Below, piece after piece: positions 4,116 through 15,896 of a stretch of 64,000 nt of DNA. The first letter of the stretch is position 1. Each line of letters starts with the position of its first letter. The stretch is from NCBI GenBank assembly GCA_036574205.1, contig JAINCQ010000014.1:1634-65633 (forward strand). Direction: 5' to 3'. The notes under the pieces are model-generated. The model was not told the DNA's origin. It ran no database searches and saw nothing but the letters and a program-made list of their open reading frames with translations. Source of the stretch: Elusimicrobiota bacterium (GTDB lineage: Bacteria > Elusimicrobiota > Elusimicrobia > Elusimicrobiales > UBA9959). The position numbers and the translations under genes were made by a program.

Positions 4116-4754
4116 TTATTTAGATTTATTTTCTTCCTGAGTTTTCTCTTCAGGTTTTTCTACATTTTCCTTACTTTCTTTTATTTCTTTTTTCTTTGCA
4201 ACTTTAACTTTTGCAGGTTTAAGAAGCCTGCCATTTACCATATATCCAGGCTGAACTACCTCAACAACTATATCATCATTACTCCCATCTCCATCAACGG
4301 TAGCAATGGTTTCGCAAAGCATAGGATCGCATTTTTTGTTCAATATATCTATCTCAGAAACCCCCTCAGCCTTAAAAAGTTTTTCAAATTCCAAGAAAAT
4401 CATTTCAAGCCCTTTTTTAATATCATCAAGGGAACTTGAGTTTGAAATATGAGCACTCGCCATTTTCATCATCTCATATAATGGAATAATATGTTGTATA
4501 AAATCATATCTTGCCCAATTTGCAATTTCATGCTTCTCTTTTTCTATCCTTTTTCTATAATTTTCAAACTCAGCTTTTAATCTTAAAAGCTGGTCATAAT
4601 ATTCCTGTTCTTTTTTCTTAGACTCTTGAAGTTCTTTCTCAATTGAGCTTTTTTCTTTCTCACAACTGACTATTTCTTCATTAGCCTCATTAATTTTCTC
4701 TTTAGCTTCTTTTAAATCCTTTTTACAATTATTATTTTCCTTCATATTTATCAA
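4116..4754 (-). CDS. grpE: Nucleotide exchange factor GrpE
   Basis: Coiled-coil N-terminus followed by LRLKAEFENYRKR and a C-terminal beta domain (VVQPGYMVNGRLLKPAKV). The TTG start at 4754 has AAGGAG 8 nt upstream and overlaps the hrcA stop. An ATG at 4745 is an alternative start. Confidence 0.92.
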   Translation of the reverse strand: MINMKENNNCKKDLKEAKEKINEANEEIVSCEKEKSSIEKELQESKKKEQEYYDQLLRLKAEFENYRKRIEKEKHEIANWARYDFIQHIIPLYEMMKMASAHISNSSSLDDIKKGLEMIFLEFEKLFKAEGVSEIDILNKKCDPMLCETIATVDGDGSNDDIVVEVVQPGYMVNGRLLKPAKVKVAKKKEIKESKENVEKPEEKTQEENKSK

Positions 4755-5851
4755 AAATCACACTCCTTGTCCCATTCTTTTAAGACATCTTCTATCATAG
4801 AACCAATTGCATCAACGATGGATATAATTTTAGGATATTCCATCCTTCTATGACCTATTATTCCTATCAACCCATAGCTTTTATCCTTCAAGCAATAGGA
4901 AGAAGTAACCATACTAAAATTATCCAGCTCTTTTATCTTGTTTTCAGAACCAATCCTTACATCTATCACACGTCTATTTTCTGAACTACCGCTGGAAATT
5001 TCCTTACGACTGCTCATTGCCTCCATAAATCTTTCTTTCAATATTTTTGTAAATCTTTCTTTTTCTTCAAGAAGCTTTGATATCATTCGTATATCTTCTA
5101 AAGAAAACTCATCAGTTTCTTCATACATTCTTGTAATTCCGTCAATAAAAAGTTCATCCTCTTCCTTGAGGATAGCCAAAAAAATATCATAAACAGCATG
5201 GAAAATTCCACCCTCATCCTTTGGAAGAAAGTCTTTCAATAAACGATCTTTCGCCTCGCGTATGCTTAAATCTTTCATGCTTTTATTCAGCTTTGAAATA
5301 GCAGTTTTAACTGAAATTTTTTCTGAGGATTTAGAAACAACAAATGGATAATGTTTTATAATTCCCGTAACAGTTACTATTATAAGTATATATCCTCTAT
5401 CAGAAACCTGAACAATATCTATTCTTTTTATATGCTCATTGCTTATATCAGAAACTATTGAAAACCCGACTTTTCTGGTAAGGTCCGATAATATCTTTGT
5501 AGTATGTTTCAAAAAATAATCAAGTTCGGCTATCCTTCTATCATATTCAATTTCTATCTTCTCTTTTTCCGCCTCAGCAATGTTTTGAGCCTTGAGTATA
5601 TTATCAATGTATAATCTGTAAGCTTTATCTGTAGGTATCCTTCCTCCAGAGGTATGAACCTGTTCAAGAAACCCTTCATCATCAAGTTCTTTTAATATAT
5701 TTCTAATACTCGCAGGTGAAATGGAAAAATTTCCATTCTCAAATATCTCGCCAGAACTGACTGGATTGCCAGTGGTAATATAACGGTAAATAAGCCAGTT
5801 AAGTATCTTTTCCTTTCTTTCTTTTGCAACTTCCGGTTTTAATATCCTCAT
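4751..5851 (-). CDS. hrcA: Heat-inducible transcriptional repressor HrcA
   Basis: 366-aa ORF with a winged-helix N-terminus (PVSSGEI...ISPASIRNILKELDDEGFLEQVHTSGGRIPT). It is the first gene of the hrcA-grpE-dnaK-dnaJ string, and a CIRCE operator lies just upstream. Confidence 0.92.
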   Translation of the reverse strand: MRILKPEVAKERKEKILNWLIYRYITTGNPVSSGEIFENGNFSISPASIRNILKELDDEGFLEQVHTSGGRIPTDKAYRLYIDNILKAQNIAEAEKEKIEIEYDRRIAELDYFLKHTTKILSDLTRKVGFSIVSDISNEHIKRIDIVQVSDRGYILIIVTVTGIIKHYPFVVSKSSEKISVKTAISKLNKSMKDLSIREAKDRLLKDFLPKDEGGIFHAVYDIFLAILKEEDELFIDGITRMYEETDEFSLEDIRMISKLLEEKERFTKILKERFMEAMSSRKEISSGSSENRRVIDVRIGSENKIKELDNFSMVTSSYCLKDKSYGLIGIIGHRRMEYPKIISIVDAIGSMIEDVLKEWDKECDF

Positions 5852-5894: not shown

Positions 5895-5923
5895 ATTATA
5901 CAACAATTATTCAAAATTGTCAA
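5895..5923 (-). promoter_or_regulatory. Sigma-70 promoter of the hrcA-dnaK operon
   Basis: The minus strand reads TTGACA (5923-5918), a 17-nt spacer, then TATAAT (5900-5895). Both hexamers match the consensus exactly. Confidence 0.8.
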
Positions 5924-5952: not shown

Positions 5953-8802
5953 TTATTTTATAAGCCAGTATGACCCGTTTTGCGTTTTAAAGATTTTAGG
6001 TTTATTGTTTTTAAAAATTATAATCTCGGAAACAGAAGATTTCTCTACCCTTTTAATATTTTTAGAATATATCTTTGAGGTAATATCAATAAGATAATTA
6101 ACAGTATATGTATTGTCATTATTTTTTATTATATGGAAATCGCTTATATTAAGTTTTATTTCATTAAAAAGGGAAAATATTCTTGAAAAATGATCTCTTA
6201 AATCTGATACGTTTTCTCCTTCAGGAGAAACCCAATCCTCATCCACAAGATTTATTAATTTAGAAACACTTTTTGATTGATATGCGTCTTTAAACTCCTC
6301 ATAAAGCCTTTTTATAAGTTCCTCCTGATCATCTGTTTTATAATTAGCGTTTGAGGTAATATTATTTCGCCTAATATTTGGATCAATACAGTATTTTTCA
6401 AGCTCCTGAGAAACCACCCACGGCAAAGATGATATAAATTTTTTATTTTCATCAATGGAGGAAGACTGGCAGATAAAATTTTTCATATTCCCTTCTATCT
6501 CCACTATTCTATCTATAGCTTTTTTATAAGATTCTAAAATTACAGATAAGTTTTCTTTTGAAATTGTGGTAAAATAAGCAATATCATCATAAATTTTAGA
6601 TGCTTCATTTATTATTTTAAGGGCTTCATCACATGGGATATTTAAAGGAAATGATTTGACTGCTTTATCAATTTCAGAAACTTTAGCATAAGCATAATCT
6701 CTTTTCTCATAAACTTCTGCAATACTATAATCATCAATAAGCTTTTGAAAATCCAGAAGATATTTCTTATGCTCATCAATAGAAAAATAGCATTTTTCAT
6801 TTAAAGCAATATCTTTATAAACAAATCCCTCTCTTTTCTCCTCCAAAGCATGCAATGAGCAGTTTATTCTTTCAAGTATCTTTTTAAAATTTGAGTTATA
6901 AATTTTGGCATAATTTTCTTTTGTCATATCAAGACTTCCGCTTTTTAATTCAGCTTTAGCCTTTCTCTTAATCTCATCAACAACAGGCATAAATTCATTT
7001 ACAAATCTTAAATTAAGAGAGATTTCATTATTCCATTTTTCTTGAATCTTTCTCGCTATTTTAGATCGCATCTTCATTTTTTCTATATAATTGTTATTTA
7101 TAAACTCCATTGGATCCGAAATCTTTTTATTCATAAATAAAAGCAAATCAGCTGTTTTTTTAAAATCATACCTTGGTATTGAAAAATACTCAGCCATAGA
7201 AGCGTTTTTAGAGTATATCTCATCATATTTTGTTAAATTGTCGTTATATTTCTTTTCTATTTCTTCAAATCTGCTTTTATAAATTTTAGATTTTTCCTCA
7301 GCTATATTGGCAAGAGTCTCATAGGCGCCAGCAATGGAAGCAATAGAATCCCTTATTTTTTTCATCTTTTCTATTGTTGGATTTTTTTTCCCCTCCCAGC
7401 TATACTGAACCCAGTGGTCATAATCCTCTTCTACCCCCAAAGTATTCTCAATCCCATCCATAATACCGTTATAATAGTCTAACTTCTTTGCCTGAGAAAT
7501 AGAAAAAAAATCCTGTTTTAAATTATTGTAATAAGAATCCTCAAAATTATTACCCAACAAATAATCTCTTAATTCAAGTGATATCAAATCCTCTTTAAGT
7601 TTTTTGCCATATCCATTTAATTTCTGTTCTATTTCATCTATAGCCTTATAAAAATTTTCGTAAGATTTTGAACAAAGATTTATTTTTTCTTTAGCACTTA
7701 AAGCTATATCTGATGAAGAATATGTTATTTTATTCATTAACGGAGTTTTACAGGAAAAGTCAAGGATATTTGCAGATTGGAGTATAAAATTTTTAACACT
7801 TACATATTCACCAGCGCTGATATTATTTGTAAGGAGTCTGTCCGAATTAAGTCCATATTCCCTAATAAGCCCTGAGTAATCAGGAACTGAAAATGAAGAC
7901 AGGTCATTTTTCTCAAGAGATGTTTTTTGATTTGCCACAACTAAAATTAAATTATCTATCTTTTCATCTCCCGTTGAAACTTTTTCACCTGCTTTAATTT
8001 TTTTACCTACATCTTCCTGATATAAACCTTTAAGTTTAATATATTCATCCTTGTTTTTTAAATACTTTGTAAAATTTTCCTTTGTAATCGGGATCTTTGC
8101 CACCTTCATCATATTTATTATCTCAGATGTTTTCCTTTCAGCTTCTTTTCTTACAATCTCAATTTCTTCCTCAGCTCTTATCTTAGCCCATATTTGATTT
8201 CTTATAAGTTTTTGTTTTCTTTCTTTTATTTCAAGTTCCTTTCTTCTTAACTCATAGCCTTCTTTCATTTTAGCTAAAACCTCAGGTCTTTTATGATAAA
8301 GTATCCCTCCCATTCTATTTTCAACACCTATCGAATCTCCGGTTCCATAAATATAATTTGTATATGCCTCATCAAGCTCTTTAACAGTGGTTTTAGAAAG
8401 CACATCCTCTTTAAATTCTGTCAATCTATTTTGAACTGCCCAATCCTGCCAGTCATTTACATAGGTCTCAACCATAGAATAAACACTCATGGCAGTTTCA
8501 GCATAAACCCCAACGACAGGAGCTAATCTTTTCAAAACAAAGAACTGAGCTGATTGAATCATATCATTTTTTATATTCTCAGGTTTCAAACCCTCAAAAA
8601 CCTGCTCCACTATTCTCCCGCCCTTACCCATAGAAATTTCATAAGCTATCTGCCCATAAACCTTTGGATCAGCAACCCCGGGAACTCTATTAGTTAAATT
8701 TTCAAGTATTACTTCTTTAACAAACTCAGCAGTAACATTTTCGGATTTAAGATTCAAATTAAAAGACAGAAACATAAAAATTGACAAAGAAATAACCTTC
8801 AT
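5953..8802 (-). CDS. Secreted protein of unknown function, 949 aa, largely helical/coiled-coil with a C-terminal NTF2-like module
   Basis: Long uninterrupted ORF with a signal peptide (MKVISLSIFMFLSFNLNL). I recognise no catalytic motif. The C-terminal ~110 aa are paralogous to a segment of the neighbouring 415-aa protein. Confidence 0.7.
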   Translation of the reverse strand: MKVISLSIFMFLSFNLNLKSENVTAEFVKEVILENLTNRVPGVADPKVYGQIAYEISMGKGGRIVEQVFEGLKPENIKNDMIQSAQFFVLKRLAPVVGVYAETAMSVYSMVETYVNDWQDWAVQNRLTEFKEDVLSKTTVKELDEAYTNYIYGTGDSIGVENRMGGILYHKRPEVLAKMKEGYELRRKELEIKERKQKLIRNQIWAKIRAEEEIEIVRKEAERKTSEIINMMKVAKIPITKENFTKYLKNKDEYIKLKGLYQEDVGKKIKAGEKVSTGDEKIDNLILVVANQKTSLEKNDLSSFSVPDYSGLIREYGLNSDRLLTNNISAGEYVSVKNFILQSANILDFSCKTPLMNKITYSSSDIALSAKEKINLCSKSYENFYKAIDEIEQKLNGYGKKLKEDLISLELRDYLLGNNFEDSYYNNLKQDFFSISQAKKLDYYNGIMDGIENTLGVEEDYDHWVQYSWEGKKNPTIEKMKKIRDSIASIAGAYETLANIAEEKSKIYKSRFEEIEKKYNDNLTKYDEIYSKNASMAEYFSIPRYDFKKTADLLLFMNKKISDPMEFINNNYIEKMKMRSKIARKIQEKWNNEISLNLRFVNEFMPVVDEIKRKAKAELKSGSLDMTKENYAKIYNSNFKKILERINCSLHALEEKREGFVYKDIALNEKCYFSIDEHKKYLLDFQKLIDDYSIAEVYEKRDYAYAKVSEIDKAVKSFPLNIPCDEALKIINEASKIYDDIAYFTTISKENLSVILESYKKAIDRIVEIEGNMKNFICQSSSIDENKKFISSLPWVVSQELEKYCIDPNIRRNNITSNANYKTDDQEELIKRLYEEFKDAYQSKSVSKLINLVDEDWVSPEGENVSDLRDHFSRIFSLFNEIKLNISDFHIIKNNDNTYTVNYLIDITSKIYSKNIKRVEKSSVSEIIIFKNNKPKIFKTQNGSYWLIK

Positions 8803-8853
8803 AAAACTCCTCCCGGAATTATAAGACTAAAAATATTATAATGAATAATTTAA

Positions 8854-10101
8854 TCAAAATTTTCTAACCTTAAAACTGGTATTCTGAACACCGCTTGAGG
8901 CAGGCATTGTAATCATCTGAAATGCGAAAAACTCCCCTGTCTCAGGCATATAGATACCATAAGATTTAGAAAGAGCTGGAGTAAAAAACACAGGCTGGGT
9001 ATAACCTGTTAAATTAGACACCTCAGCCTGAGTCAGGCTTTCTATATTTTTATTAAACTCTTTCATCTTGCCGTTATGTTGAAGTTCGACCTGATCGTGA
9101 TAAACTATAAATTCTCCAATTTCTCCATTTATAGTCATATCATCATAATAATGACATCCTTTTTCTCCGGTTGTAAAGTAATATAAAGGATGTAGATATG
9201 GATCAACCCCTGAACAACTTATATTTACTATGCCAACACTTCCGCCAATATCGTCATCTATTATTACCATACCCTCGCCTTCACCGGGGGTCTGACCTGT
9301 TGCCACATTGTCGGCATCTGAAAGCCCAAATAAGAGAGGTTTTTTCATACTATAGAGTTTTAATTTATCCTCATCATATTTAAAAACCATCTCAGTCATT
9401 CTTTTATCTACTATGATCTGACCTGATTTTGAGCTTACAACACTCCTATTATAAGTAATTGAAACGCCAATCCCTTTCAAACCAGAAGTGATATTATTTA
9501 TTGAGTAGTTAATCTTTATATTATTTAAAGCAGTGAAGTCTCTTTTAACAGCAAGCTCTAAAAAGTCCTTGTCTCCCGCAAAATCATCTGAGACATAAGA
9601 CATAAATTTAGATAGACTTTTATTTGAATATGCCTCAAATATTTGATCTAAAATTTCCTTGACTTTAAGATTAATATTTTCCGCTGTAACCTCTATCTCT
9701 CTATAAGTCTCTTCAATATTATTCGTCTTACCAGCTGTATTTGTTATTTCAATATAAAACTTGTAACTCTTGTTTAACTCGGGGGTAAAAGAAAATTCAA
9801 AATCCCCGTTTTCAGAAAATTTTGCATCCTGCCAGCTATTTTTTGAATCCACACTTACCCTAACGCTTCCCACAACAGCCCCTTTGCCAGCTGAAGCTTT
9901 TCCCCTTATAATTACCTTCCCATCTTTTAAACTTTCTTTAAAAAATTTTATCTTTCTGGTAGTTTCATCAAAAGATATAGAATTTATAGTCATATACTTT
10001 ATTGAAACCTCATCCTTTGATTTGCCAAATATCCACCACTTTGCGCTTACAAAACCAGAAGTTATAAAAAATATAGCAAGTAATAATGTTATTTTTTTCA
10101 T
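8854..10101 (-). CDS. Secreted protein of unknown function, 415 aa (Ig-like N-terminal segment plus NTF2-like module)
   Basis: Signal peptide MKKITLLLAIFFITSGFVSA. A GGAGGAG Shine-Dalgarno site straddles the stop of the upstream barrel gene. The segment AYSNKSLSKFMSYVSDDF matches AYQSKSVSKLINLVDEDW in the 949-aa protein. Confidence 0.7.
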   Translation of the reverse strand: MKKITLLLAIFFITSGFVSAKWWIFGKSKDEVSIKYMTINSISFDETTRKIKFFKESLKDGKVIIRGKASAGKGAVVGSVRVSVDSKNSWQDAKFSENGDFEFSFTPELNKSYKFYIEITNTAGKTNNIEETYREIEVTAENINLKVKEILDQIFEAYSNKSLSKFMSYVSDDFAGDKDFLELAVKRDFTALNNIKINYSINNITSGLKGIGVSITYNRSVVSSKSGQIIVDKRMTEMVFKYDEDKLKLYSMKKPLLFGLSDADNVATGQTPGEGEGMVIIDDDIGGSVGIVNISCSGVDPYLHPLYYFTTGEKGCHYYDDMTINGEIGEFIVYHDQVELQHNGKMKEFNKNIESLTQAEVSNLTGYTQPVFFTPALSKSYGIYMPETGEFFAFQMITMPASSGVQNTSFKVRKF

Positions 10102-10109
10102 ATCTCCTC

Positions 10110-11653
10110 CTAAAACGAACTTGATATCTGAAAACTAACACTTTTCTCTCTAAAATCGTTTGTATCTGTTGAAAAATTATATTTATTATAAACTCCTCTT
10201 AAAGAAAAGGTTATATCTTTTTTCATTAAGATAGTTTTGTAATACAAATTAAAAGAGGCAAAAAGCTTATCTGAATCATCACCAATTTCTTTTCTCAAAA
10301 AATTCTGTCCTAATCTTATATCTCCGCTTATCTTCTTTTTAGGTTTCTCAAAGCCAAAAGCAAAAGAATATTCATATATTTTATCTGTCTCATTTGAAAG
10401 ATCATCATTTAAATACCAGCTTCCAACTGTAAACTGCGGCTTTATAATGGTATTTTCACTTTCTATATATTTATTAAAAGAGGTATTAAAGTTTATTTCG
10501 CTTGAATTTCTTATATCTGTATCTGTTTTGTAAATTGTATAGCCTAAGTTTGTATCATTCTCAATTCCACCATATTTGTCTTTATAGTTTAAGTTAAAGA
10601 AATGATCTTTTTGAGAATTGGCCCATATTTTCTATCAAATTTATAAGAAAAATTTACATATGAATATTGCCTTCTGGCAAATATCTTTTTAATACCTATA
10701 GAAATATCCGGTCTTATAGTGTATGTTGTGTCTGTTTTCTGGTTTTCTAAATTATCTCTATACCACAGAACTCCAGCATTTATGGTGGTCATCTTTGAAT
10801 ACTTATATCTCCACCTGGCTTTAACTTTCCTCCTATCGCTAACTGCTGAACCTAAAAGTGATAGGTAATCAGGCTCAACATTTTCATACTCTATAGTAAT
10901 CCTTGAAGGATCAGCATCTCCAACAAACTCAAACCTGTAGGCATCTCCCTTAAATGATTTATTTGAAATCTTTTCATCTGTATCTGATCTGGCATATTCT
11001 CCAGTTAACTCAAGTCCGGCAAATGGATTATATTTTAAATCAAGAGAATAATTTGATGAATCATACTTCTCGCTTTCACTCATAAGCTCTATATCTTTTG
11101 TATTTAAATAGTTAACCCCAAGATTAAAATCTCCTAAATTTTCTTTTAACTTTAAACCATACGCCTGTCTTTTTAAAACTCTTGTATCGGGATCTTTGAA
11201 ATAAGAATCCCATCTCGGATAGGTATGTCCAAAAATCGCTGTTATTTCAGGAAGTTTTGATTCTTCCTTTAAAAACTTATAACTTGCTCCTTTAAGCGAT
11301 GAAGCCAGGCTGTACTGTGAAAAGCTTTCAAATATATCACCGGCTGTTATCAAGTTATAACCTTTTTTAAAAGATCCAGTTATATTCATAAGAGATATAT
11401 TCTTAACATCGTTTCTTTTATCATCTGTAAATTTAACTCCAAGGTTATAGTTATAAGAAATATTGTCTTTTCTACCAGAGCCATTTATATTTAAAACATC
11501 TATATAATTCCATCCCTCTGTTAAAGAAGATGACCCCTTCCCCTCACCAGTTATATCATTATAATAAATATTAAAATCATTACTCATATGAAACTCAGTT
11601 TCACAATATAAAAAGCCAGAAAAAGAAAACAATAATATACCAATGAATTTCAT
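10110..11653 (-). pseudogene. Outer-membrane beta-barrel protein, reading frame broken once near 10592-10631
   Basis: The 354-aa ORF (11653-10589) has a signal peptide and alternating beta-strand-like sequence. A second frame is open from 10631 to 10110 and continues the same character, ending in an OMP-type C-terminal signal (VSFQISSSF). Adding one nucleotide would join the two frames. Confidence 0.6.
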
Positions 11654-11684: not shown

Positions 11685-12014
11685 TTAGGCTTTACTAAAA
11701 TCTCTTATACTTACAGTATAATATTTAGTCCCGCAAGGATATCCGGGGATGGGTCCACAGTTCTTTTTGCCAAATGTATCTTCATTATCTATTAATGGCT
11801 TTAACGAAGTTGTGGCTTTTTCTATTTTATAGGTAGATGTAGAAACATTAGCATCAAGGTTATTGCTTGACTCCTCTTGTTTAACCCCATTCTTATTGCA
11901 TGAGATTAAAAAAGAAAATATTATACTCAAAAACCCAAATAATCCTAACTTAAATAAATTTTGATTCTCATGATCTTTTATTCCGGTCTTTTTAAGAAGA
12001 TTTGATAAACTCAT
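11685..12014 (-). CDS. Small lipoprotein (109 aa) with a two-Cys C-terminal tail
   Basis: Hydrophobic segment ending in the lipobox FLISC, and a C-terminal KKNCGPIPGYPCGTKYY. Its ATG overlaps the methyltransferase stop (ATGA at 12011-12014). Confidence 0.55.
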   Translation of the reverse strand: MSLSNLLKKTGIKDHENQNLFKLGLFGFLSIIFSFLISCNKNGVKQEESSNNLDANVSTSTYKIEKATTSLKPLIDNEDTFGKKNCGPIPGYPCGTKYYTVSIRDFSKA

Positions 12015-12943
12015 ATAATTCTCCTTCTCTTAAACTCATAATAAGCAGATTCTTTATTAAAAAAGCAAACTTCAAATCTGGCTTTTTTCCTACTGTCTAT
12101 AAAATTATATATAAAATTCTTGGGGTTGTCAAAGAAATCTTTTTTTACCTTCTCATATGCTTTATCAAAATCCCTGTAAATTTCAAAATATTTAAGCACA
12201 AGTTCAAAAAGCCATCCAGAAAAATTATTTTCTTTTAGTTCATTTAAAACGCTTTTATCCATTTGCTTTTGTTTATCAATAAGATCATTAATAGCTATAG
12301 CAATTACCGGAGAAAGAAAACAAGCCTCAAACACGCTTTCTTTATTTATTTTTTCAAGCTCAACATCCTTTATAAACTTCTCTGTCTCGCTAAGCCACAA
12401 CTCCTCATTAAAATCCAGAACACCAGCTAAAGCAAGATTTTTTCTCAATTTGCTTTTTTCATAATCTTTTTTTTTAAAAGCCCTATACCTTATGCATGGT
12501 CTTAAATAATCATAATCAAAAAACTCTTTCTTATATATTTCAAAACCAAACTCACTTAAAAGATTTTCAAGTAGTTCATCAGGAAAGCAGTAAAGATGAT
12601 TCATTCCTTTTGTCTCACTTCCATAAATCCAGTTTAAAACCCTTTCTCTATCCTCAGGATTCTTTGCTTCTAAAAAATTTGAAAAACTTTTTTCTATATC
12701 TGGCGTTTCTATTATAATAAACTTTTCTTTTTTGAGCGTTCTATTAGCCTCAGATAAAAAATACTTCGTCCTGAAAAAACCTAAATGTTCTATAAGCTGT
12801 GATGCAAGAATTTCTATAAACTCTTCATCAGGAAAATCTAAATTCCATGCCGGCATAACAAAATCTGGTTTTACATGCAAGTTTATATCTATATTTATAT
12901 AACCGCTTAGCTTATTATATCCACATCCAATATTAAGCTTCAT
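12011..12943 (-). CDS. Class I SAM-dependent methyltransferase with a C-terminal extension
   Basis: The N-terminus MKLNIGCGYNKLSGYINID carries motif I, followed by ILASQLIEHL and FIIIETPD. Its ATG overlaps the radical SAM stop (ATGA at 12940-12943). Confidence 0.8.
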   Translation of the reverse strand: MKLNIGCGYNKLSGYINIDINLHVKPDFVMPAWNLDFPDEEFIEILASQLIEHLGFFRTKYFLSEANRTLKKEKFIIIETPDIEKSFSNFLEAKNPEDRERVLNWIYGSETKGMNHLYCFPDELLENLLSEFGFEIYKKEFFDYDYLRPCIRYRAFKKKDYEKSKLRKNLALAGVLDFNEELWLSETEKFIKDVELEKINKESVFEACFLSPVIAIAINDLIDKQKQMDKSVLNELKENNFSGWLFELVLKYFEIYRDFDKAYEKVKKDFFDNPKNFIYNFIDSRKKARFEVCFFNKESAYYEFKRRRII

Positions 12944-14067
12944 TTTCTTTTCCCCGAAAAAAATTTATTTAATCCTGCAAACTCATTCTTATTTGCCTTA
13001 GATGTCATACTATACCACAATCTTTTAAAATAATTAAAATTTTTCTTTTCAAACCTATAAAAACAATAAGGATCGTTATGAAGTTTTCCTGTTTTAGAAA
13101 GGCTTATTTCTGAACACCCTCCCTTACAGCTTTCAAGATATTTACAGCCTTTGCAATTTTCCCCCGCATCTTCTTTCCTAAATTTTCTTGTATATGAAAA
13201 AGAATCTTTGCTATTCCATATATCATAAAGTGATTTTTCCCTCACATTTCCCTCAATAAAACTATCATTATTTAATGATAAACATCCTAAAACATCACCA
13301 TTACTTCTAATCCCGATAACACTTATTCCAGCCTGACACCCCTCCCATTTATCATAAAGCCATATATTTTTAATCAAGCATGAATTATATCCCATATCAT
13401 GCGCGCCTATAACAGGTAATTCTTCTACAGAATATCTTCTTCTCATAGTCTCAATAAAAAGCCCAACCGAATAAAACTCATCCTCATTAAGGAGATAATC
13501 TTTGCTAAATCTTTCCCCTTCACTACCAGCCATTTGAATTTGCCAGGCTATATTTCTGCCTTTTATAATCTCCTTTAAATCATTTAACTCCAGAATATTT
13601 AGCTTTGAAACAGTTGTAATTACGCTTACAGGGATATCTCTTTCTAATGCCTTATCTATAAATCCAAGCGTTTTTTTAAAAGCTCCTTTAAAACCTCTTA
13701 TTTTATCATGAGTATCTGGATTTGCTCCATCAAGACTTGTTGCAAGAGCCTGGAGTTTAAGTTCTTTTAATTTATCCATCATCTCATCATTATAAATAGT
13801 TCCATTAGTAATAACGCACAAATCCATATCAAGTTCTTTTATTTTTTTAGCTACTTGCCAGAAGTTTTTAGACAAAAGAGGTTCTCCTCCCATTAATGCA
13901 ACTGACCTGCATCCAGTCTTTTTTAAATCATAACACAACCTTATAGACTCATCAATTATAAGTTCATTTTCCCTTTCTTTACCGGCAGTAGAACCACAAT
14001 GTATACAGTTTAAATTACATCTTAATGTTAACTCCCATACACATGATAAAAGATTATATTTATTCAT
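12940..14067 (-). CDS. Radical SAM enzyme with a SPASM-type C-terminal Cys-rich domain
   Basis: CNLNCIHC (CxxxCxxC) lies near the N-terminus, followed by GGEPLL. The C-terminal region has CQAG...GC and CKGCKYLESCKGGC...PYC, consistent with auxiliary Fe-S clusters. Confidence 0.85.
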   Translation of the reverse strand: MNKYNLLSCVWELTLRCNLNCIHCGSTAGKERENELIIDESIRLCYDLKKTGCRSVALMGGEPLLSKNFWQVAKKIKELDMDLCVITNGTIYNDEMMDKLKELKLQALATSLDGANPDTHDKIRGFKGAFKKTLGFIDKALERDIPVSVITTVSKLNILELNDLKEIIKGRNIAWQIQMAGSEGERFSKDYLLNEDEFYSVGLFIETMRRRYSVEELPVIGAHDMGYNSCLIKNIWLYDKWEGCQAGISVIGIRSNGDVLGCLSLNNDSFIEGNVREKSLYDIWNSKDSFSYTRKFRKEDAGENCKGCKYLESCKGGCSEISLSKTGKLHNDPYCFYRFEKKNFNYFKRLWYSMTSKANKNEFAGLNKFFSGKRK

Positions 14068-15896
14068 CTTTTCAAAAACCTTGTTAAATCCTTATTAAAA
14101 TTTACAATCAAAGGTGGTATTTCTTCTTTTTTAAACTCTACCTCCTGCCAATCTTCATTTCTAATTTTTTTAATTCTCCCGCCATAAGAGGTCAATGGCA
14201 AAACATAGCTATAATCATCAAAGATAATTGCACAATCATTCCAGCTAAAAACAGGGATATACTTCCATTTATTTTTTTCAAAAAGTCCAAAACCATGGGA
14301 ATAATCATACTTTGGATTTTCAGCGCCAATTATCTCCATAATTGTCGGGACAATATCAAAATGAGATGTTTTATGCTCTAAAGCTTGAGGTTTTAGATCA
14401 GGGTGATAAAACACAAAAGGAACGGATACCTCTTCCTTAGAATATGAATGATTATGCCCAAAATACCCTCTTTCTAAAAATGGTTCGCCGTGGTCTGCTG
14501 TTATAATTATGATAGTATCTTTTAAATATTTCTTTTCTTTAAGTAATTTTAATATTTTACCTATTAAAAAATCGTCAAAATGTATTGAGTTTTTGTACTT
14601 ATTAAAAAGCGGTTTAACATTTTCTTTATTTAGCCTTAATAGATTTACCCCATAAGAAGGCTTAAATTTTTCAAACTCAGGAAAATAATCATAGCTTCCA
14701 TGCGGAGCGTCAAAAAATATAAAACCAAAAAAAGGGTTGTTTTTTTCTCTTTTTTGAATATAATCAATAAACTTCTCTGTTACTTCAAAATCCCTCTGAG
14801 CGCCATTACCTTTTTTAGGCTCATCAAAAATATTTCCATCTGGAATATTCACAAAGCAGGTCTTATTAAACTCAGGGAATGTAACCTTTGAGCTTGCAAA
14901 GACCCTCATATCATACCCTTTCTTTCTAAGCGCTTCCATCATAACAGGCGCCCTTTTTTCACCTACCATATTAAACCAGTAGTTTCCATAAAGTCCATAA
15001 AAAATTGAAAATATACCAAAACGAGTTGCATTCCCACCGCTATAATGATTTTTAAAAACTATAGATTTTTTTGAAAGCTCAAATATATTGGGAACTACTT
15101 CTTCATCCAGCATATCATATCTCATTGAATCAGCCACAATTATCAGGAAATTATAATCTCTATCTGTTTTTTTTAGTCTAATCTCAGATTTTGGATAAAT
15201 CAGATTAGAATAACTGCTATCTATAAATTTTTCAACAGGCTTATTTAAATTAAACCCTAAATATTTGTTTGCAAAACTTCTTATAGTTAAAGGTTGATAT
15301 AAAGGAAATAAATCCCTGTTTTTAATAACAGGAGTATAATCATAGAGATTTGAAATAGCAAAAGAAAACTTATCTATAAAAACACAAAAAAATAAAAATA
15401 ATACTGCTCTTTTTAAAAATTTTAAAAAATTATTTTTCTGGCAAATCATAACTGAAAATCTAAATATAAAATACTCTGCTAAAATTAAACCAAGAAAAAT
15501 CATCCAGAAATACAATTTTACATTCCAGCTCTGATTTAGTGTATCTATCCCGCCGGGTGTTGTTAAAAGATTAATAACCATTGAGTTTATATGAAATCCC
15601 CAAAACCTATAAAGAATAATATCTATAACAAAAGCCATATGATAAATTGAAAATAAAGAAATTAAAAGATATTGAAAAAAAGGTAAAAAAAGAAATAAAG
15701 ATGAAATTAAAAATAATGCGAAATATATCATAAAGGTATTTGAAAAAAGCGCAAAAATCAAAAATAAAAACTCTATCAATGTTCTTTTTGATATAAAAAC
15801 ATATGAAAAACTTAAAGTTAGAGTTAAGATAAAATTGATTAAAAGGAATAGAATGAAAATATAAAATTTCTCTTTAAACCAAATTCTAAGTTTCAC
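14064..15896 (-). CDS. YejM/PbgA-like inner-membrane protein (multi-TM N-terminus plus sulfatase/alkaline-phosphatase-fold domain)
   Basis: About 5 N-terminal TM helices precede NFLIIVADSMRYD...HYSGGNATRFGIFSIFYGL...ITADHGE. There is no C/S-x-P-x-R formylglycine motif. The pattern resembles my recollection of E. coli YejM. Confidence 0.75.
   Translation of the reverse strand: MKLRIWFKEKFYIFILFLLINFILTLTLSFSYVFISKRTLIEFLFLIFALFSNTFMIYFALFLISSLFLFLPFFQYLLISLFSIYHMAFVIDIILYRFWGFHINSMVINLLTTPGGIDTLNQSWNVKLYFWMIFLGLILAEYFIFRFSVMICQKNNFLKFLKRAVLFLFFCVFIDKFSFAISNLYDYTPVIKNRDLFPLYQPLTIRSFANKYLGFNLNKPVEKFIDSSYSNLIYPKSEIRLKKTDRDYNFLIIVADSMRYDMLDEEVVPNIFELSKKSIVFKNHYSGGNATRFGIFSIFYGLYGNYWFNMVGEKRAPVMMEALRKKGYDMRVFASSKVTFPEFNKTCFVNIPDGNIFDEPKKGNGAQRDFEVTEKFIDYIQKREKNNPFFGFIFFDAPHGSYDYFPEFEKFKPSYGVNLLRLNKENVKPLFNKYKNSIHFDDFLIGKILKLLKEKKYLKDTIIIITADHGEPFLERGYFGHNHSYSKEEVSVPFVFYHPDLKPQALEHKTSHFDIVPTIMEIIGAENPKYDYSHGFGLFEKNKWKYIPVFSWNDCAIIFDDYSYVLPLTSYGGRIKKIRNEDWQEVEFKKEEIPPLIVNFNKDLTRFLKR

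Follow-up and report, generated by a model that had tools for sequence, protein, structure and literature searches.

A radical SAM/SPASM enzyme, a methyltransferase and a small lipoprotein encoded together in Elusimicrobiota: a candidate RiPP-like module found in Bacteria and Archaea

What is the substrate of a radical S-adenosylmethionine (SAM) enzyme that an Elusimicrobiota bacterium encodes between a sulfatase-fold membrane protein and a methyltransferase followed by a small lipoprotein? The genes lie on the minus strand of a 64,000-nucleotide stretch of contig JAINCQ010000014.1 (the whole stretch is called the window below), from an Elusimicrobiota metagenome-assembled genome of ~31% G+C. 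A preliminary description of this DNA had reported four open reading frames (ORFs) chained by three ATGA overlaps, and had proposed that the radical SAM enzyme and the methyltransferase mature either the small exported protein or one of the secreted proteins encoded downstream. We found all four ORFs at the positions given there and read the overlaps directly in the sequence, with each start codon overlapping the preceding stop as ATGA at 14064-14067, 12940-12943 and 12011-12014. The domain calls of sulfatase fold, radical SAM/SPASM and methyltransferase also agree with evidence from Pfam and structural models. Overlaps of 4 bases are common in the window, with 8 among 43 same-strand junctions, so three in a row are ordinary operon evidence and no statistical oddity; the ATGA chain marks an operon but is not exceptional. 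Below we report that the unit conserved across lineages consists of three of these genes, and that the 109-aa lipoprotein is the best candidate substrate of the two enzymes. The three genes are as follows.

12940-14067, minus strand: radical SAM/SPASM enzyme, putative maturase, 375 aa (ORF)
12011-12943, minus strand: predicted class I SAM-dependent methyltransferase, 310 aa (ORF)
11685-12014, minus strand: predicted precursor lipoprotein (proposed substrate), 109 aa (ORF)

Conservation of the three-gene module

Looking up homolog contigs and scanning one genome per GTDB species yielded 33 non-redundant radical SAM loci. The individual radical SAM or precursor contigs that were compared with the window carry codes of the form L001, L002 and so on. 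Orthologous radical SAM proteins are 43-81% identical to that of the window, after which identity drops sharply to ~30%, the level of generic NirJ/AhbD-like enzymes. The orthologs come from Elusimicrobiota, Geobacteraceae, Smithellaceae and Syntrophus (Syntrophales), and Nitrospiraceae among the bacteria, and from Thermoplasmatales and the Asgard lineages Thor-, Hod-, Odin- and Promethearchaeota among the archaea. Beside the orthologous radical SAM gene, 28 of the 33 loci have between one and four precursor-like ORFs, on the same strand in all but one; of the other five, two lie at the end of a contig. Hidden Markov models (HMMs) of the precursors matched ORFs in these 28 loci and had no match at any of 50 non-orthologous radical SAM loci used as controls. 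A cruder regular-expression search gave the same picture, with four stray matches in the controls.

We also searched for partner genes by tblastn with the window proteins and by all-against-all clustering of neighboring ORFs. The only partner families that recur across lineages are the methyltransferase, which is beside or near the radical SAM gene in 24 of 33 orthologous loci, and the small precursor-like proteins. This linkage is observed directly. The conserved module therefore has three genes (radical SAM/SPASM enzyme, methyltransferase and 109-aa lipoprotein), and the four-gene unit of the preliminary description has to be reduced accordingly, since its first gene accompanies the radical SAM gene outside the window only in the closest relative, L001. 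The triad of methyltransferase, radical SAM gene and small ORF, whose conservation as a neighborhood had been suggested as a check, does recur across lineages. From the linkage in 28 of 33 loci, compared to none of 50 controls, the small exported protein emerges as the best candidate substrate of the enzyme pair, so that half of the earlier substrate proposal is retained.

Architecture of the precursor family and its enzymes

The 109-aa protein belongs to no Pfam or NCBIfam family, and scans of ten diverse precursors against both collections at E <= 1 returned only noise, with the exception of a Kunitz domain. A profile search of 1.84 billion representative proteins nevertheless recovered bacterial-type precursors that form 38 clusters at 50% identity, and HMMs built separately from the bacterial and the archaeal precursors find each other. 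Conservation is concentrated at the two ends of these proteins, with a mean column conservation among the bacterial precursors of 0.45 in the leader, 0.49 in the hydrophobic segment, 0.27 in the linker and 0.78 in the core. In the window protein these segments lie as follows.

11949-12014, minus strand: putative leader, residues 1-22 (MSLSNLLKKTGIKDHENQNLFK), an extended n-region with the motif h..hGk.GL...E
11898-11948, minus strand: hydrophobic segment and lipobox L-I-S-C (Cys39), from hydropathy and the lipobox motif
11697-11762, minus strand: core, residues 85-106 (NCGPIPGYPCGTKYYTVSIRDF), from the family motif

The leader has the family consensus h..hGk.hGL...E/D, with the variants ..LKKTGL...E.. 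in Elusimicrobiota, KLGEKTxLTKED in Syntrophus, Smithellaceae and Nitrospiraceae, and IY.IGK.LGL.K.DI in archaea. It is also present in archaeal precursors that lack a membrane segment, which argues that it acts in recognition or activation and is not just a feature of the signal peptide. In the window protein a single hydropathy peak follows, at residues 19-41, and the lipobox noted in the preliminary description is there as LISC, with Cys39 as the lipid-accepting candidate; the pattern [LVI][ASTVI][GAS]C predicts a bacterial lipoprotein. A lipobox Cys at about residues 35-44 is found in 38 of 43 bacterial representatives. The middle of the protein is the part that varies between lineages: Elusimicrobiota have a lipoprotein signal sequence there and Asgard archaea a membrane helix, and in the Geobacteraceae, Syntrophus, Smithellaceae and Nitrospiraceae loci a signal peptide is combined with a Kunitz domain (Kunitz_BPTI, E = 3.7e-14), while the Thermoplasmatales peptides of 61-84 aa have no middle segment at all.

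The core consensus over 88 cores is Y1-P-x-G4-T5-[RK]-Y7-x-[TS]9-[VI]10-S-x-x-D14-F15, and its fixed positions correspond in the window to Y92 (Y1), G95 (G4), Y98 (Y7), T100 (T9), D105 (D14) and F106 (F15), all six of which are invariant in alignment A1. The sequence Y7-x-[TS]9 is found in 83 of the 88 cores; in cores of the Kunitz type this ninth position is Gly or Ala. At position 8 the window core has Tyr, as do 30 of 88 cores, and Gly stands there in 29 of 88 and in 3 of 3 short Kunitz-type cores. We found no second core motif elsewhere in the 64-kb window. Archaeal loci, by comparison, encode up to four precursor paralogs, and single archaeal peptides can carry two or three tandem 15-aa cores (YKAGTxYGTVSxKD in Thermoplasmatales). 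Paralogs, tandem cores, and a conserved leader and core around a linker that is hypervariable or replaced by a Kunitz domain are hallmarks of peptides that are made on the ribosome and modified after translation (RiPPs). A leader-core precursor encoded beside its putative maturase, which is the general mark of RiPP and RiPP-like systems, is thus predicted here. The leader and the Tyr motif of the core are found beside the same enzymes in five phyla of bacteria and archaea. The leader-core architecture and the pattern of conservation are themselves direct observations.

The 375-aa protein is identical (100%) to an entry annotated "MAG: radical SAM protein [Elusimicrobiota bacterium]" and belongs to the SPASM subgroup of the radical SAM superfamily, scoring 93.2 bits with Pfam Radical_SAM (PF04055; cut-off, 29.5) and 43.2 bits with Pfam SPASM (cut-off, 21.5). 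Enzymes of this superfamily contain a partial TIM barrel with a CX3CX2C motif that ligates a [4Fe-4S] cluster, and the seven-Cys SPASM motif (CX9-15GX4C ... CX2CX5CX3C ... C) holds two auxiliary clusters. The first motif is present as CNLNCIHC, as had been noted before, and its residues C17, C21 and C24 are invariant among 42 homologs, as are the seven SPASM cysteines C244, C262, C305, C308, C314, C318 and C335. The C-terminal tail is also conserved (F370, G372 and R374). The solved structures closest by sequence are SkfB, PqqE and SuiB, and an AF2 model of the enzyme (pLDDT, 89.2) has SkfB, PqqE, SuiB, CteB and anSME among its top Foldseek matches, enzymes that all act on peptides or proteins. 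That the closest solved sequences and folds are peptide maturases further favors the small protein as substrate. In an NCBIfam scan the enzyme reached the cut-off of none of the radical SAM equivalogs. Its best match was TIGR03913 (GDL-motif maturase; 197.6 bits, cut-off 591.75), followed by TIGR04103 (nif11 maturase 3; 178.7, cut-off 725), which may correspond to the splicease family. Other scores were 145.6 for AhbD (cut-off, 500), 133.1 for WgkB (650), 126.8 for NirJ (515), 123.6 for MftC (265), 96.5 for PqqE (381), 88.2 for DynA (450) and 86.6 for SkfB (300).

For the 310-aa protein, Pfam gave only a sub-threshold match to Methyltransf_23 (21.9 bits, cut-off 27), while several of its homologs pass the gathering score of Methyltransf_11. 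Class I methyltransferases have a Rossmann-like fold in which motif I is rich in Gly and strand 2 is followed by an acidic residue. Foldseek aligns the AF2 model (pLDDT, 95.3) with class I methyltransferases (3sm3, E = 1.5e-7) over the N-terminal ~200 residues only, motif I is present as GCG at residues 6-8, and G6, C7, G8 and D19 are invariant among 40 homologs. On the strength of this model we assign the protein as a class I SAM-dependent methyltransferase, with the catalytic domain at residues 1-160 and an all-helical C-terminal domain at ~164-306; the C-terminal part of the archaeal homologs contains TPR repeats. The methyltransferase gene is missing only in L005, L010 and L015 (three loci, or four if a duplicate Syntrophus contig is counted). 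These are the Kunitz-type loci, whose cores read YPVSKYG[GA]V[SG].RDF, with Gly/Ala in place of Thr9. Since the enzyme is absent only where position 9 is Gly or Ala, the pattern, which comes from a small sample of related lineages, hints that the methyl group may depend on Thr/Ser at core position 9 or be placed there.

Proposed maturation pathway and alternatives

We consider it likely that the 109-aa protein is a ribosomal precursor whose core, Y92-F106, is modified in the cytoplasm by the radical SAM/SPASM enzyme, with the methyltransferase most likely adding a methyl group. The conserved N-terminal segment, residues 1-22, would serve as a recognition or activating leader. Both radical SAM chemistry and SAM-dependent methylation are cytoplasmic, so any modification of the core would have to come before export. 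The modified protein would then pass through Sec and be lipidated at Cys39. The leader runs on into the lipoprotein signal peptide, so that signal peptidase II, in cutting at Cys39, would remove the two together, which could explain how the leader is lost without a dedicated protease, none being conserved. The product would be a lipoprotein anchored in the membrane, with its modified tail exposed either to the periplasm or at the surface; Cys86 and Cys94 would probably close a small disulfide loop after export. Passage through Sec favors a compact modification, and we favor a small local change centered on the invariant Tyr98. As to its chemistry, we lean tentatively toward a short Tyr cross-link; some other kind of reaction is a slightly weaker possibility, tyramine excision of the spliceotide type is unlikely, and epimerization is more unlikely still.

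Several observations weigh against a system of this kind. The identity of the radical SAM enzyme across domains is notably high for a RiPP maturase. Three evaluable loci (L002, L006 and L009) have the radical SAM gene and the methyltransferase but no adjacent precursor. A Cys-less precursor homolog, P0157 (L088, 4255-4581), is encoded away from any radical SAM or methyltransferase gene, so some precursors are unlinked from their enzymes. Clustering of the neighboring ORFs found no protease, transporter, RiPP recognition element (RRE) or other tailoring enzyme conserved with the module. The radical SAM core begins at residue 10, leaving no N-terminal RRE domain, and the Pfam scan, run as one of the checks suggested in the preliminary description, detected no PqqD-like RRE in any of the four window proteins. 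Finally, the window site reads K-Y-Y-T and not X-Y-G, the form that spliceotides have.

The two cysteines of the window core, C86 and C94, had led the preliminary description to expect thioether chemistry, and a sactipeptide- or ranthipeptide-type system in which the radical SAM enzyme links one or both of them would suit a conserved tail with two Cys residues and an enzyme that has the thioether-forming SkfB and CteB among its closest structures. We think such a system quite unlikely. The 43 bacterial representatives have two core types, CGPxPGYPCGT[KR]Y (~31) and GPWxGYP[AT]GT[KR]Y (~11), in which the two cysteines are present together or absent together and never single, and archaeal and Kunitz-type ("YPVSKYGGVSIRDF") cores have no Cys at the pair positions. 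In L086 the Cys-less precursor P0161 directly follows a radical SAM ortholog (52% identity) and a methyltransferase (40% identity). The conserved donor Cys by which sactipeptides and ranthipeptides are defined is thus missing from many radical SAM-linked cores, and the pair is not, as judged from these alignments, the conserved target of the family; the invariant residues are the tyrosines, the Gly and the Asp-Phe. Paired loss, with Trp as the substitute, fits a structural disulfide, which is how we read the pair, and spliceotides of Rheinheimera are reported to have a disulfide flanking the modified site (PMC11626197). The overlap of the radical SAM gene with the stop codon of a sulfatase-fold gene raises a different possibility, that the enzyme is an anSME-like maturase making formylglycine in the coupled upstream YejM-like protein, and anSME is indeed in the Foldseek list (rank 11, E = 2e-11). 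However, SkfB, PqqE, SuiB and CteB rank above it, and the YejM-like protein lacks the motif [CS]x[PA]xR, its sequence GGNATR aligning instead with the Thr-type nucleophile region of YejM, EptA and LtaS. The adjacency to a sulfatase-fold gene is moreover found only in the closest relative, where a GT9-like fragment lies between the two genes. This explanation is largely refuted, and we give it almost no weight.

Two further alternatives give the small protein a different role. In one, the module makes a diffusible product or a peptide-derived redox cofactor of the PQQ or mycofactocin kind, which is cut from the core while the anchored protein acts as a carrier. An invariant Tyr in the core, the tandem repeats and multiple copies in archaea, the matches to PqqE and MftC, and recurrent Thorarchaeal ORFs that by eye resemble iron-type alcohol dehydrogenase and aldehyde oxidoreductase would all be in keeping with this. 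Yet the scores for PqqE and MftC (96.5 and 123.6 bits) are far under the cut-offs, the module has no conserved protease or additional tailoring enzyme, in most lineages a lipobox or an N-in membrane anchor is predicted to place the core on the outer side of the membrane, and the Thorarchaeal synteny is specific to that lineage; a cofactor is, in our judgment, improbable. In the other, the small protein is a membrane-anchored partner or regulator of enzymes that act on a non-peptide substrate such as a tetrapyrrole, in the manner of NirJ or AhbD. The high conservation of the radical SAM enzyme across domains and the loci without an adjacent precursor suit this, as do scores of 122-146 bits for AhbD, NirJ and related families. 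Against it, those scores are far under the cut-offs (for AhbD, 145.6 against 500) and lower than those for peptide-maturase families, no tetrapyrrole genes are found in the neighborhoods, and a leader-core design with tandem cores and paralogs is hard to explain for a regulator, so that this too has little chance of being correct. A clean fit of the enzyme to a family with a known non-peptide substrate, which the preliminary description had named as grounds for abandoning a peptide substrate, did not appear, the protein being below the cut-off of every NCBIfam equivalog, AhbD and NirJ included. Both alternatives fit poorly with outward-anchored cores, the lack of processing enzymes and the sub-threshold family scores.

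A ribosomal precursor modified on its core has parallels among known systems. The radical SAM/SPASM enzyme QhpD modifies the small protein QhpC in the cytoplasm before its export to the periplasm, which is the order of events proposed here for a small protein and the same class of enzyme. The two systems differ in that QhpD makes Cys-to-Asp/Glu thioethers, QhpC is an enzyme subunit, and QhpC maturation has a dedicated protease and transporter, partners found at none of the present loci. Spliceotides (PlpX and RhaX, with X-Y-G sites) resemble our module, by described features, in having a radical SAM/SPASM maturase, and their binary systems, like the present enzyme, do without an RRE and rely on a leader helix (PMC11414181). 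Disulfide-flanked cores in Rheinheimera and protease-inhibitor activity have been reported for them as well (PMC11626197), and the latter is echoed by the Kunitz fusions seen here. The analogy is attractive for these three features, a leader helix without an RRE, disulfide-flanked cores and protease-inhibiting products, and the present cores also have an invariant Tyr, with Gly as the next residue in 29 of 88 and in all three of the Kunitz type. In contrast, the window site is K-Y-Y-T, the score against TIGR04103 is 178.7 with a cut-off of 725, and the conserved methyltransferase and the anchored or lipoprotein precursors are features of the present family that are not described for spliceotides.

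Triceptides and other cyclophane RiPPs (3-CyFE, SuiB/StrB and DarE/DynA) are made by radical SAM/SPASM enzymes that act on short aromatic-centered motifs, repeated within one precursor, and in triceptides these are aromatic-X-X motifs (PMC11002830). The Y7-x-[TS]9 of most cores here resembles such a motif, and SuiB is a top structural match. The present system differs in that it has no RRE, its Kunitz-type cores have Gly/Ala at position 9, its products would be anchored proteins and not free peptides, and the radical SAM enzyme is far under the cut-offs of the WgkB and DynA models. Bufferins have Sec or lipoprotein signal peptides, receive their modification in the cytoplasm ahead of export and are in some cases protein-sized; precursors with signal peptides are described as highly unusual among RiPPs and as shown experimentally only for these MNIO-modified bufferins (PMC12452194). 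Signal-peptide-bearing precursors are what bufferins and oxazolins have in common with the present family, but those systems use an MNIO enzyme with a DUF2063 partner where we find a radical SAM/SPASM enzyme and a methyltransferase. Bufferins are also modified on Cys and bind copper, and here a separate conserved leader motif precedes the signal sequence.

The enzyme class and the general logic are therefore already known. The precursor family, its partnership with a methyltransferase, the fusion of leader and lipoprotein signal peptide, and the spread across domains appear to be new: we found no description of this precursor family in the literature that we searched on radical SAM and RiPP systems, and no Pfam or NCBIfam model covers it, in line with the earlier remark that the gene combination was not recognized as a described system. 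If our reading is right, the module represents a precursor family not recognized before and, for radical SAM/SPASM enzymes, probably a new reaction or class of substrate. Its distribution over Elusimicrobiota, Desulfobacterota-type lineages, Nitrospiraceae, Thermoplasmatales and Asgard archaea is unusual. The module would also give a radical SAM example of a RiPP-like precursor whose leader lies inside a lipoprotein signal peptide. The occurrence of the core in tandem repeats and fused to a Kunitz domain suggests that this portable 15-residue segment is a transferable modification tag, with possible use in protein engineering, like splice tags. The most complete form of our proposal is a so far undescribed family of Bacteria and Archaea (Asgard included), in which a dedicated radical SAM/SPASM enzyme gives a 15-residue tag a new Tyr-centered modification, the tag is methylated as well, and a lipid anchor, a membrane helix or a Kunitz domain then presents it outside the cell, the bacterial leader being merged with a lipoprotein signal peptide and removed by signal peptidase II. 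We put this full combination forward as a tentative one, which has somewhat less than an even chance of holding in every part.

Neighboring genes, promoters and other loci

The gene at the head of the operon, together with two promoter-like sequences, has the following positions.

14064-15896, minus strand: YejM-like membrane protein with a sulfatase fold, 610 aa, GTG start (ORF)
12104-12132, minus strand: perfect sigma-70 consensus TTGACA-N17-TATAAT inside the methyltransferase gene at its 3' end and ~90 nt upstream from the precursor start
5895-5923, minus strand: second perfect TTGACA-N17-TATAAT, intergenic, ahead of a 366-aa gene at 4751-5851

The 610-aa protein matches Pfam Sulfatase (129.6 bits) and DUF3413 (55.9 bits) and aligns over its full length with the PDB structure of YejM (5i5h, E = 5e-37), while its score with NCBIfam LapC_YejM_PbgA is 173.5 against a cut-off of 825. 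Its architecture is like that of YejM/PbgA/LapC, with five N-terminal membrane helices and a periplasmic sulfatase-like domain. The protein keeps ITADHGEP where Escherichia coli YejM, which lacks the DHG, has ITAGRGIP; with GGNATR in its nucleophile region as well, it may, unlike YejM, be a catalytically active transferase or hydrolase. In other Elusimicrobiota the radical SAM gene directly follows a tlyA-like gene. As it accompanies the radical SAM gene in the window and L001 only, the YejM-like gene is a lineage-specific envelope-gene neighbor that is translationally coupled to the module, and is neither a component of the system nor a client of the radical SAM enzyme. Between the two genes in L001 (5540-5962) is a 140-aa ORF that by eye resembles an N-terminal fragment of a GT9 (heptosyltransferase-like) glycosyltransferase, which would point to a lipopolysaccharide-gene context for the YejM-like gene.

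Perfect matches to TTGACA-N17-TATAAT number two in the 64 kb, where 0.04 would be expected by chance, and the one ahead of the precursor gene suggests that the precursor is also transcribed on its own. L001 has its own TTGAAA...TGATATAAT ahead of the precursor, as judged by eye, since the upstream regions are too diverged to align.

Other loci differ from the window in their surroundings. In Thermoplasmatales (L017, 6553-10460, and L018, 7010-11689) there are two or three tandem radical SAM/SPASM paralogs and at least four precursor genes, with a 461-aa protein that by eye resembles adenylate-forming enzymes encoded just upstream in L018. A second, unrelated radical SAM gene of 453-455 aa adjoins the cluster in L010 (5977-7529) and L015 (10895-12262), from Smithellaceae and Nitrospiraceae; in L010 it is beside a small Cys-rich peptide (...NADCCGPHPMTGCPDMVPITK), and it may be a separate RiPP system. 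Among Thorarchaeota (L021-L029) the cluster of radical SAM gene, precursor and methyltransferase is in conserved synteny with a number of ORF families on its flanks. By eye these resemble PHP-domain, SCP2-like, nitronate-monooxygenase-like, iron-type alcohol dehydrogenase and aldehyde oxidoreductase genes, and the arrangement may be just a lineage-specific gene order. In L088, CsgG-like and peptidase M29 genes are the neighbors of P0157.

Downstream of the module, the secreted proteins that formed the other half of the earlier substrate proposal were rejected as substrates, as they have no core motif and are conserved only in L001, not with the module. The porin-like gene at 10113-11653 (minus strand) is frameshifted: its 354-aa ORF (10589-11653) covers only ~344 residues from the N terminus of a protein that L001 encodes intact with 513 aa (8442-9983), and the remaining ~170 residues lie in a different frame at ~10113-10622, which makes it either a pseudogene or an assembly error.

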